Positions 16-2,058 of a stretch of 64,000 nt of DNA are shown piece by piece; within the stretch, counting starts at the first letter, position 1; each line of letters begins with the position of its first letter. The DNA lies in NCBI GenBank assembly GCA_963724325.1, contig CAVRUH010000005.1, positions 32,001 through 96,000 of the forward strand, in the 5' to 3' direction. The stretch is from Waddliaceae bacterium (GTDB lineage Bacteria; Chlamydiota; Chlamydiia; Chlamydiales; Waddliaceae). A program made the position numbers and the translations under genes. The notes beneath the pieces were generated by a model, which had not been told where the DNA came from, made no database searches, and worked only from the letters and a program-made list of their open reading frames with translations.

Positions 16-308
16 TGCGGCCTGCTGTCTCTGACATTGTGGCCTGCTGTCTCCGACAGCAGACGTCCGGCTCTCGGAGAGAGCCGGCCACAAGTGGCCT
101 GCTGTCTCCGACAGCAGACGTCCGGCTCTCGGAGAGAGCCGGCCCAAGTGGCCTGCTGTCTCCGACAGCAGACGTCCGGCTCTCGGAGAGAGCCGGCCAC
201 AAGTGGCCTGCTGTCTCCGACAGCAGACGTCCGGCTCTCGGAGAGAGCCGGCCACAAGTGGTCTGCTGTCTCCGACAGCAGACGTCCGGCTCTCGGAGAG
301 AGCCGGCC
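16..308. repeat. Left part of a 55-bp GC-rich tandem array of double-hairpin (REP-like) units
   Basis: Unit GTGGCCTGCTGTCTCCGACAGCAGACGTCCGGCTCTCGGAGAGAGCCGGCCACAA starts at 39, 94, 148, 203 and 258; the last copy is cut at 308. A degenerate partial copy lies at 16-37. Confidence 0.97.
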
Positions 309-1794
309 CTCAAGTTTGGCGGTTTCTCATATTTTTGAGAAAAAACTTTCAAAAAAAAGAGAAGACACATAATATTTTTGTTTTTCACGCAAATGAGGAC
401 AAAAAAATATGTGCCTTCTCGAAACTTTTCTATCACTAGTCTCCCTATGGAGACCAGCATTTTGTAAACAAGACACCTTTAGAAGAGTCAAAGATCACGC
501 TGTCGCGACTGTTTGCTCCTTGGGACGCCATACGATCACAAATCTTATCATTTGGCTTGGAAAAGATCAATTAGATCCTACAGCCGATTATAGATTATAC
601 AATGAATATAAGTGGAATGTCGAGGATCTTTTTAACCCTTTATTGGAAAAGGCAATGCCGTTTTTTGGAGATGATTATGTTGTTGTTGGAGCCGACGACA
701 CTCGTATTCGCAAAAGAGGAAAGAAGATCCCTGGAACATCTTGGGGAAGGGATCCATTATCACCCCCATTTCAAGTTAATTTAATGTGGGGGCAAAGATT
801 TCTTCAATTTTCATTTCTACTTCCTATGTACAATCATTCATCAGTCAGTGCACGAGCATTGCCTATAAGATTTATTCATACTCCTCCTTTAACAAAACCT
901 GGTAAAAGAGCAAATGCAGCAGAAATATTAACATACAAGAAATTATGTAAGACTCAAAATTTATCGACTCGGTATATAGAAGAGGTAAGAAAATTGAGGG
1001 AGCATTTAGATGCAATAGGGTGTACAAAAAAACAACTTATGGTCACTGACGGTAGTTTCTGTAATAGAATTTGCATGAATTTAAACATGCCAGGAGTTGA
1101 AGCACTAGCACGCGCCAGAAAGAATTCAAAACTATGTTATCGGGCTGAAGGCAATGGTAGACGCACATATGGGGTTAATAAATTCACTCCAGAGCAAGTA
1201 CGTCAAGATGATAGTATACCATGGCAGTCTGCAATTTTCTTTTATGGTGGTGAATGGAGAAGAATAAGATTTAAAGTATTGCGAGATGTATTATGGCAAT
1301 CTGGCACAAAGACTAGACCGATGAGATTATTAGTCGTAGCACCGTTGCCTTATGTGAAAAATGGGATTAGAAATTACCGCCAACCCGCCTATCTATTAAC
1401 AACTGATCTCGAGGCCACAGCAGAATTCCTTCTTCAGAGTTATTTAGACAGATGGCAGATAGAAGTAAACTTCAGAGAGGAAAAATCTGTATTGGGTGTT
1501 GGAGAGGCCCAAGTATGGAGTGAAAAGTCAGCTGAAAGACAGCCATCATTTAGGGTTGCAGTATATAGTGCCTTATTATTGTCTAGCATTCTGAAATACA
1601 AGGATGTGCCACCAATTGATGAAGAGATTCCGAAATGGAGAGACAAGCCACAAAGAAATACCTGTAGAGCATTAATAGGGATGATTAGAAGTGAAACTCT
1701 AGAAAATATAGAAAGTATAATAGATTTAGAATTAACTAGGCCGATGTTATCGGCAATTTTTCGAAAAGCAGCCTAAAAAACCGCCAAACTTGAG
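309..1794 (+). mobile_element. Insertion sequence, about 1486 bp, IS701/IS4-like DDE type
   Basis: Perfect 17-bp terminal inverted repeats CTCAAGTTTGGCGGTTT (309-325) and AAACCGCCAAACTTGAG (1778-1794) enclose a single transposase ORF. Flanking direct repeat at 284-308 and 1795-1819. Confidence 0.93.
409..1776 (+). CDS. DDE transposase (IS701/IS4-like, DDE_5-type)
   Basis: 455 aa with motifs ADDT, TDGSF and YLDRWQIEVNFREEK (YREK-type). The ORF fills the space between the IRs. Confidence 0.92.
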   Translation: MCLLETFLSLVSLWRPAFCKQDTFRRVKDHAVATVCSLGRHTITNLIIWLGKDQLDPTADYRLYNEYKWNVEDLFNPLLEKAMPFFGDDYVVVGADDTRIRKRGKKIPGTSWGRDPLSPPFQVNLMWGQRFLQFSFLLPMYNHSSVSARALPIRFIHTPPLTKPGKRANAAEILTYKKLCKTQNLSTRYIEEVRKLREHLDAIGCTKKQLMVTDGSFCNRICMNLNMPGVEALARARKNSKLCYRAEGNGRRTYGVNKFTPEQVRQDDSIPWQSAIFFYGGEWRRIRFKVLRDVLWQSGTKTRPMRLLVVAPLPYVKNGIRNYRQPAYLLTTDLEATAEFLLQSYLDRWQIEVNFREEKSVLGVGEAQVWSEKSAERQPSFRVAVYSALLLSSILKYKDVPPIDEEIPKWRDKPQRNTCRALIGMIRSETLENIESIIDLELTRPMLSAIFRKAA

Positions 1795-2058
1795 GTCCGG
1801 CTCTCGGAGAGAGCCGGCCACAAGTGGTCTGCTGTCTCCGACAGCAGACGTCCGGCTCTCGGAGAGAGCCGGCCACAAGTGGTCTGCTGTCTCCGACAGC
1901 AGACGTCCGGCTCTCGGAGAGAGCCGGCCACAAGGCCTGCTGTCTCCGACAGCAGACGTCCGGCTCTCGGAGAGAGCCGGCCACAAGTGGCCTGCTGTCT
2001 CCGACAGCAGACGTCCGGCTCTCGGAGAGAGCCGGCCACAAGTGGACAGCAACCACAA
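1795..2058. repeat. Right part of the 55-bp double-hairpin tandem array
   Basis: Half unit 1795-1823, full units starting at 1824, 1879, 1934 (2 nt short) and 1987, degenerate tail 2042-2058. Confidence 0.97.

Follow-up and report, generated by a model that had tools for sequence, protein, structure and literature searches.

The region between maf and kdpF in the window (the whole stretch of 64,000 nucleotides of Waddliaceae DNA analysed here) harbors nine tandem, head-out pairs of a short palindromic repeat. With a probability of roughly 0.87, this array belongs to the REP/BIME (REPIN) family, owes its presence to RAYT-type spread and was later entered by an insertion sequence (IS). Each of its 55-bp units is a head-out inverted pair of one GTGG-tagged REP hairpin, and the complementary loops, the GTGGC/GCCAC arms and the palindromic hinge of the unit arise because it consists of two inverted copies of a single repeat. 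The repeat is classed as REP/BIME, whereas the maf-kdpF locus is not classed as a REPtron; the putative REPtron link of the hairpin is drawn, by sequence comparison, from other genomes. Showing that the array is of an ordinary repeat kind removes its apparent oddity as an RNA, and it extends REP/RAYT systems to the environmental chlamydiae, several of which carry complete REPtrons.

Anatomy and setting of the array

In the first unit, copy A (hairpin 1; positions 39-64, plus strand) has its GTGG tag at 39-42, a stem at 44-51/55-62 and the loop TCC at 52-54. Copy B (hairpin 2; 65-91, minus strand) is inverted, with its tag at 91-88 and a 9-bp stem at 67-75/79-87; its loop, TCC on the minus strand, appears as GGA on the plus strand at 76-78. 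On the minus strand, hairpin 2 therefore shows the motif of hairpin 1, with its GTGG tag, 9-bp stem and TCC loop, save for paired differences. The layout of hairpins, loops, hinge and unit ends proposed in a preliminary description of this DNA matches these coordinates, with hairpin 1 at 44-62, the GACGTC hinge at 62-67, hairpin 2 at 67-87 and unit ends that read GTGG and CCAC. Within each unit, the abutting partners are separated by a spacer of 2-3 bases.

All nine of the two-hairpin units that had been counted are present. Five tandem head-out heterodimers make up the left part of the array (39-308, with starts at 39, 94, 148, 203 and 258) and four units its right part (1824-2041, with starts at 1824, 1879, 1934 and 1987). 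They measure 53-55 bp (54 bp for the unit at 94, 53 bp for that at 1934), share 97-98% identity and, as initially noticed, are richer in GC than the surrounding DNA (67-68% versus 38-40%); the window as a whole has 39% GC. Half copies flank the array on both sides. That at 16-38 (plus strand) lies outside the first full copy and comprises the tag GCGG, the 5' arm, the loop and 4 bases of the 3' arm; by direct sequence reading, that at 2042-2058 (minus strand) closes the array with a tag and a 5' arm. The repeat is read through in all frames by open reading frames spanning the array. A CRISPR-like array was rejected as a candidate, as there are no unique spacers. The GTGGTC variant ascribed to the units at 258, 1824 and 1879 was found at exactly those three, and because the units are near-identical and one variant is common to three neighbors, the run appears to have grown locally, presumably through slippage or unequal recombination.

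The array separates the divergent genes maf, whose start is 58 bases to the left of position 16, and kdpF (2129-2218, plus strand), the first gene of kdpFABC-kdpD and the right neighbor of the array, whose start is about 70 bases downstream of it. A divergent intergenic region, with starts at these distances and no stop codon before the repeat, is atypical for the family (see below). The kdp strand has a single promoter-like site, located downstream of the array at 2068-2096 (score 9 of 12), and such sites are no commoner there than in shuffled sequences. At this locus, the array is probably a passenger without selected function.

A dispersed family of GTGG hairpins

Whether the hairpins also occur elsewhere in the genome was a question posed beforehand, and a strict pattern search answered it with 85 copies, against none in each of five shuffled genomes. 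The copies form a dispersed family at about 21 loci, as delimited in this analysis, on five contigs, where they are found as singlets, wide pairs (n = 4), abutting pairs (n = 28, at 9 loci) and tandem runs. Their stems are of 8-11 bp and their loops of 3 nt. The tag just 5' of the stem is GTGG in 62 of the 85 copies and GTAG in two, and in several of the 21 others it has been removed by a small deletion or by the end of an IS. Arrays at C1:948k, C5:16k and C7:56k are free of any IS.

Compensatory changes were looked for by aligning both hairpins as one motif (18 rows: 12 from the own genome, 5 planctomycete and 1 metagenomic). In this alignment 98% of 162 cells are paired, and two-sided stem changes occupy 24 cells at 3 of the 9 pairs, a level reached by none of 500 shuffles; 13 of the 18 rows were chosen by a pattern that partly fixes the stem, so that pairing is partly built in, and related rows are not independent. 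As for position, a stop codon is no more than 15 nt away at 14 of the 21 loci, and no locus comes that close to a start; these distances were measured on our own ORF calls with repeats masked. Proximity to a stop codon is expected by chance at 8% if counted per base or at 30% if counted per gap, and the stricter of these nulls gives P = 6e-4.

REPs of the GTAG/GTGG superfamily are recognized by a GTAG or GTGG tag 0-2 nt 5' of the hairpin foot (PMC6006769), together with a basal stem of 7-20 bp that is rich in GC and paired throughout, a loop of 2-5 nt and paired changes. The present hairpin has its tag 0-2 nt 5' of the foot, a GC-rich paired stem and dispersed extragenic copies, and its inverted pairs, nine of them in tandem within the window, have the organization of BIMEs or REPINs. 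A RAYT gene flanked by the same hairpin family, which defines a REPtron, was found in other genomes and not in the own one. It might be argued from the 97-98% identity of the units, which does indicate local tandem amplification, that the array is simply a variable-number tandem repeat of local origin whose symmetry is due to chance. That reading describes the lengthening of the run and nothing else; as an origin it is refuted by the dispersal of 85 copies over about 21 loci and five contigs, by their paired stem changes and by the occurrence of the hairpin next to RAYT genes of a different phylum, and its likelihood is negligible.

A second alternative to a REP array is that the unit is a structured RNA, namely a three-way junction whose loops contact each other, or a functional two-hairpin element bound by a protein, for example one that controls the kdp operon. 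In agreement with this, a single unit folds far better than 200 shuffles (z = -4.6 on the plus strand and -5.2 on the minus strand), the stems covary, the array is situated about 70 bases upstream of kdpF, and REPs are reported to influence termination and the stability of mRNAs (PMC6006769). However, loop complementarity is confined to 19 of the 28 abutting pairs and is broken at 4 of the 9 loci without compensation, and the GACGTC hinge is found in 11 of the 28, at 2 of the 9 loci. Single copies and widely spaced pairs exist, G-U pairs show no preference for one strand, to judge from the basal-pair mismatches (5 T-G versus 7 C-A), the array is split by a 1.5-kb IS, and the only kdp-strand promoter-like site is downstream of it. 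A search of Rfam gave no match at the gathering score; its 15 weak, hairpin-driven matches were mostly to microRNA models. The initial suggestion of a three-way-junction RNA, in which the loop complementarity and the hinge would carry meaning, is thus not upheld, and a functional RNA or protein-bound element in the wider sense is very unlikely.

Identical partners occur at none of the 9 abutting-pair loci versus 3 of the 4 widely spaced pairs (Fisher P = 0.014), and abutting partners always differ at 2-4 paired stem positions; taken alone, the lack of homodimers among the abutting pairs does not depart significantly from what random pairing of stem types would give (P = 0.57). Deletion would remove perfect palindromes of abutting copies and leave abutting heterodimers as the ones to persist, and a similar proposal is made in PMC3733652. 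The family also includes incomplete copies. Six loci have stacks of 5'-half copies (tag, 5' arm and loop) beyond their outermost full copy, sixteen in total, and there is one 3'-half copy. At five places, including window position 17, the outermost tag is GCGG. The half-copy junctions were compared with the CA/CC cuts that a guide reading GTGG would predict and are ambiguous through microhomology, given which the stacks may be compatible with both RAYT footprints and slippage.

Much of this organization has precedents. The GTAG/GTGG REPs of Di Nocera et al. (2013; PMC3733652) similarly have a tetranucleotide tag at one end, a 6-9-bp stem and a short loop, and some of those families form head-out (HH) dimers 1-5 bp apart, with a preference for heterodimers, as well as tandem clusters; they lie mostly less than 20 bp from gene 3' ends, and the GTGG tag is known in a REP family of Opitutus (PMC3733652). 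Inverted REP pairs and tandem clusters of near-identical pairs likewise characterize BIMEs and REPINs, REPtrons consist of a single Y1/HUH gene flanked by its own REPs, as at the L105/L177, L178 and L136 loci described below, and group-3 REPs have short perfect stems (PMC3116915, PMC6006769, PMC8266576). Unlike in the available descriptions of BIMEs and REPINs, the chlamydial spacer is of 2-3 bases only, and the cognate RAYT is absent from the assembly. Head-out dimers, heterodimers, tandem clusters and proximity to 3' ends are therefore already described elsewhere (PMC3733652, PMC3116915). The available text of PMC3733652 makes no mention of stacked 5'-half copies, which are present in the chlamydial family, and its strain list contains no chlamydiae (0 matches for 'Chlamyd' in four supplements); its consensus figure could hold the planctomycete hairpin family, the chlamydial one being compared with that paper by description only. 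The initial statement that no such element had been described for chlamydiae stands insofar as the literature searched yielded no description of a REP or RAYT in these bacteria, and it falls insofar as the organization itself is described in other phyla (PMC3733652).

RAYT genes in the own and other genomes

No cognate RAYT flanked by the hairpin was detected in the own assembly, which is 84.6% complete, using PF01797, NF047646, tblastn with 42 RAYT proteins and a 42-sequence profile. The single Y1 gene of the genome, at C5:207.3-207.8k, is an open frame with a RAYT-like product that scores 79.3-79.5 bits against a model cut-off of 80. It lies inside arrays of a different palindrome family; the palindromes nearby have 4-nt loops and no stem in common with the GTGG hairpin. 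As the only Y1 gene sits in arrays of another palindrome, the cognate gene is either lost or located in the missing 15% of the assembly. One could suppose instead that the C5 gene serves the GTGG hairpin in trans and that no enzyme is missing, which its open frame and its score just under the cut-off would allow. Against this are its embedding in foreign arrays without any nearby copy of the hairpin, the mere 23% identity of its product to the RAYT of the planctomycete locus L105 and the rule of one RAYT per REP type (PMC6006769), which together make service in trans improbable.

That the genome is chlamydial agrees with the homologs of one of its genes: among the 120 listed, all 5 that bear a taxon name (73-80% identical) come from chlamydiae; the marker Chlam_OMP6 had no match in this genome or in the controls. 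The exact hairpin pattern was encountered in none of 60 relatives and none of 400 genomes of the phylum, the same genus included; these sets overlap, and the exact pattern misses diverged siblings such as that of G137. On the other hand, a scan of a species-level genome collection returned 92 loci with the hairpin, nearly all of them from a few Gemmataceae-type planctomycete MAGs. Five planctomycete genomes contain 28-287 copies each, against 0 in controls, and some copies from the scan (L038, L041) equal hairpin 2 plus tag, with identity over 24 bases. At L105, one of the 92 loci (counted with L177 as L105/L177), a RAYT gene has an inverted copy of the hairpin on each side. L178 has a RAYT gene 75% identical to its L105 homolog, and the flanks of this gene carry abutting TCC/GGA heterodimers in tandem, at a spacing of 2 nt, that are built like the 55-bp unit of the window. 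The search for a RAYT or Y1 gene flanked by these hairpins, which the preliminary description had envisaged, thus failed in the own genome and succeeded at L105/L177 and L178. Among the RAYT loci of the five planctomycete genomes, 2 of 7 have the hairpin family and the other five have other hairpins or none, and in two of the five genomes, all of which carry the repeat, no match to an L105-type RAYT was found. The RAYTs linked to the hairpin score 54.5 of 80 bits, under the NCBIfam cut-off. On the strength of these comparisons, the dispersed family, its covariation and the planctomycete REPtrons with the same hairpin support the first description of the element as BIME/REP-like and possibly a RAYT substrate.

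Within the phylum, an L105-type RAYT is matched in 12 of 400 genomes at E <= 1e-5, and clear REPtrons are found among the matching genomes at L131, L132, L134, L135 and L136. The last of these belongs to G137, a member of the same order, in which a sibling GTGG hairpin, with the loop GCC and 63 matches, borders the RAYT gene and also forms tandem inverted pairs; GCC-loop variants are present in the planctomycete hairpin family as well. A metagenome scan placed hairpin 1 on four contigs of 39-44% GC, on two of them as wide inverted pairs, and no RAYT was seen among the ORFs listed for these contigs.

By analogy with the biochemistry in PMC8266576, a RAYT (TnpA-REP, an HUH enzyme) would bind the tagged single strand, using GTGG as a guide, and would cut and rejoin at CA/CC-type dinucleotides, so that pairs would be seeded at new sites, mostly just after genes. 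The mode of REP spread is regarded as still unresolved (PMC8266576), and the half-copy stacks, as well as a short perfect hairpin paired with a RAYT of soluble size from L105 or L178, bear on that question. A more encompassing scenario is that a Gemmataceae-like REPtron was acquired across phyla, that it spread to about 21 sites before its enzyme was lost, that the half-copy stacks are footprints of RAYT cutting and rejoining, and that the DDE transposase of the interrupting IS reads the extruded cruciform by its shape. As a whole this scenario is doubtful, if conceivable. Inheritance of RAYT genes is considered to be mainly vertical (PMC6006769), and a cross-phylum transfer of a REP/RAYT system, if true, would be a useful counter-example.

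The insertion sequence within the array

The element that interrupts the array is a DDE insertion sequence of 1486 bp (309-1794, plus strand), present in the genome as eight full copies that are 99.9-100% identical and one 31-bp remnant. It is bounded by identical 17-bp terminal inverted repeats (309-325, plus strand, and 1778-1794, minus strand) and encodes a single transposase of 455 aa (409-1776, plus strand) with a DDE_5 domain (PF13546; 28.1 bits for a cut-off of 27). Its insertion is accompanied by a 25-bp target duplication, the left copy of which (284-308) comprises the whole of hairpin 2 and two bases on each side and is centered on the loop; the right copy (1795-1819) constitutes an extra, tenth hairpin 2. 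When the IS and the duplication are deleted in silico, a 55-bp unit identical to that at 1824 is restored, and because the restoration is exact, the array is older than the IS, as had been suggested. Contigs from four sequencing runs, compared with positions 258-1823, provided coverage over the IS only, with no empty-site joint in those contigs.

The other copies behave in the same manner. All eight full copies are bordered by direct repeats of 22-27 bp centered on a hairpin loop, seven of them exact and one with one mismatch, whose ends fall -1 to +2 bases from the stem foot. Six of the eight are in the GTGG hairpin family, at 3 loci, and the two others, like the remnant, are in a second, unrelated palindrome family. 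Relatives of the IS in G148 (47-48% identical) show 25-32-bp repeats on AT-rich hairpins at 4 of 4 full copies, and a relative of 26% identity has two copies with repeats of only 4-5 bp; 6 of the 12 foreign loci were unreadable (contig ends, fragments). No relatives were confirmed in viral contigs. Duplication of the whole hairpin points to targeting by shape. Probably, the transposase captures an extruded cruciform; it would join the IS ends at the two stem feet, on opposite strands, and repair would then leave the hairpin duplicated. Targeting specific to REPs is not claimed: none of 6 insertion loci falls among the 178 'other' of 316 hairpins (a probability of about 0.007), and the value is about 0.14 if only GC-rich hairpins are counted.

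Since six of the eight full copies reside in the family, each with a duplicated hairpin, it may be asked whether the repeat is itself a non-autonomous element or a footprint of the IS, generated by repeated insertion, hairpin duplication and loss. Yet each duplication adds one direct hairpin of 23-27 bp and not an inverted 55-bp pair, IS-free arrays exist at the three loci named above, insertions of the IS are also found in an unrelated palindrome family and those of its relatives in AT-rich, terminator-like hairpins, and the repeat and the IS ends have no sequence in common. An origin of the repeat from the IS is thus already largely refuted and extremely unlikely.

The IS resembles the IS701 family in its size (1400-1550 bp for that family), its single DDE_5 transposase, its terminal inverted repeats and its best HMM match (PMC2266710). 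It scores 137.4 of 170 with the best NCBIfam model, IS701_3 (NF049999), and 41.3 of 150 with NF033540, both under cut-off. Members of the IS701 family have direct repeats of 4 bp and a different consensus at their ends (PMC2266710), and membership was rejected on account of the 22-27-bp duplications and of these scores. A published precedent for whole-hairpin duplication is IS1630 of Mycoplasma fermentans, which also targets varying inverted repeats and duplicates them, with long repeats of variable length (16-26 bp; PMC3317919). IS1630 has a transposase of the IS30 family, whereas that of the present IS is a DDE_5 protein of the IS4 superfamily, the own-genome targets of which, unlike those reported for IS1630, are all REP-like repeats. 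Insertion of IS elements into REPs is likewise already described: ISPsy8, ISPa11, ISPpu9/10, ISRm19 and ISRm22 also have their copies concentrated in REP clusters (PMC1525189). Elements of the ISPsy8 type, as portrayed there, use one fixed cut position in one REP family and generate 0-6-bp repeats, whereas the present IS duplicates an entire hairpin and inserts into two families that are unrelated to each other.

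REPtron-like loci and the sole RAYT-like gene

REPtron-like loci, in which a RAYT gene coding for the HUH (Y1) transposase of REP repeats is flanked by its own repeats, are recurrent in environmental chlamydiae, since RAYT genes bordered by their own inverted hairpins are found at loci L131, L132, L134, L135, L136, L137, L143, and L144, in six genomes of the same phylum. The window's own genome (G000) has only one RAYT-like gene, of 180 aa (L001 1327-1869; with its flanks, contig C5:207.3-208.6k), with a RAYT model score of 79.3 bits vs. a cut-off of 80. It is adjoined by 106-bp tandem units of the second palindrome family, for which 73 perfect hairpins were counted. 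Together, the gene and these units are a probable chlamydial REPtron.

Further arrangements of the repeats

A subfamily of the main, GTGG-tagged repeat, found at C1:657.5k, C1:987.1k, C7:365.2k, and C7:470.6k of G000, has a conserved tail and a spacer of about 100 bp, and its members are identical partners in wide inverted pairs, reminiscent of classical REPINs. In the window, tandem arrays are present at 48414-49253 and 53213-53631 (164-bp x 5.1; 53- and 184-bp periods). The two regions have in common a short GC-rich arm in both orientations, which indicates that they probably represent a third REP-like family of the genome. On a metagenomic contig (L127 410-735), a long unrelated inverted-repeat element adjoins a single copy of hairpin 1, the loop-TCC hairpin of the window unit. 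The window also harbors a complete potassium-uptake locus, kdpF-kdpA-kdpB-kdpC-kdpD (2129-9103), whose kdpF, of 29 aa only, is easy to overlook.

Nested and deleted IS copies

Copies of the IS that interrupts the window array pile up inside single REP clusters, with three at C1:956,600-961,338 and two at C1:211,100-214,486. One copy entered a hairpin that its neighbor had duplicated. The 27-bp repeat of this nested copy takes in two bases of the neighboring IS's end, and the order of insertion is thereby given. At C1:879,427-879,457, a 31-bp piece of the IS left end lies between duplicated second-family hairpins; the interior of the element was deleted here, while the two copies of the target were retained.
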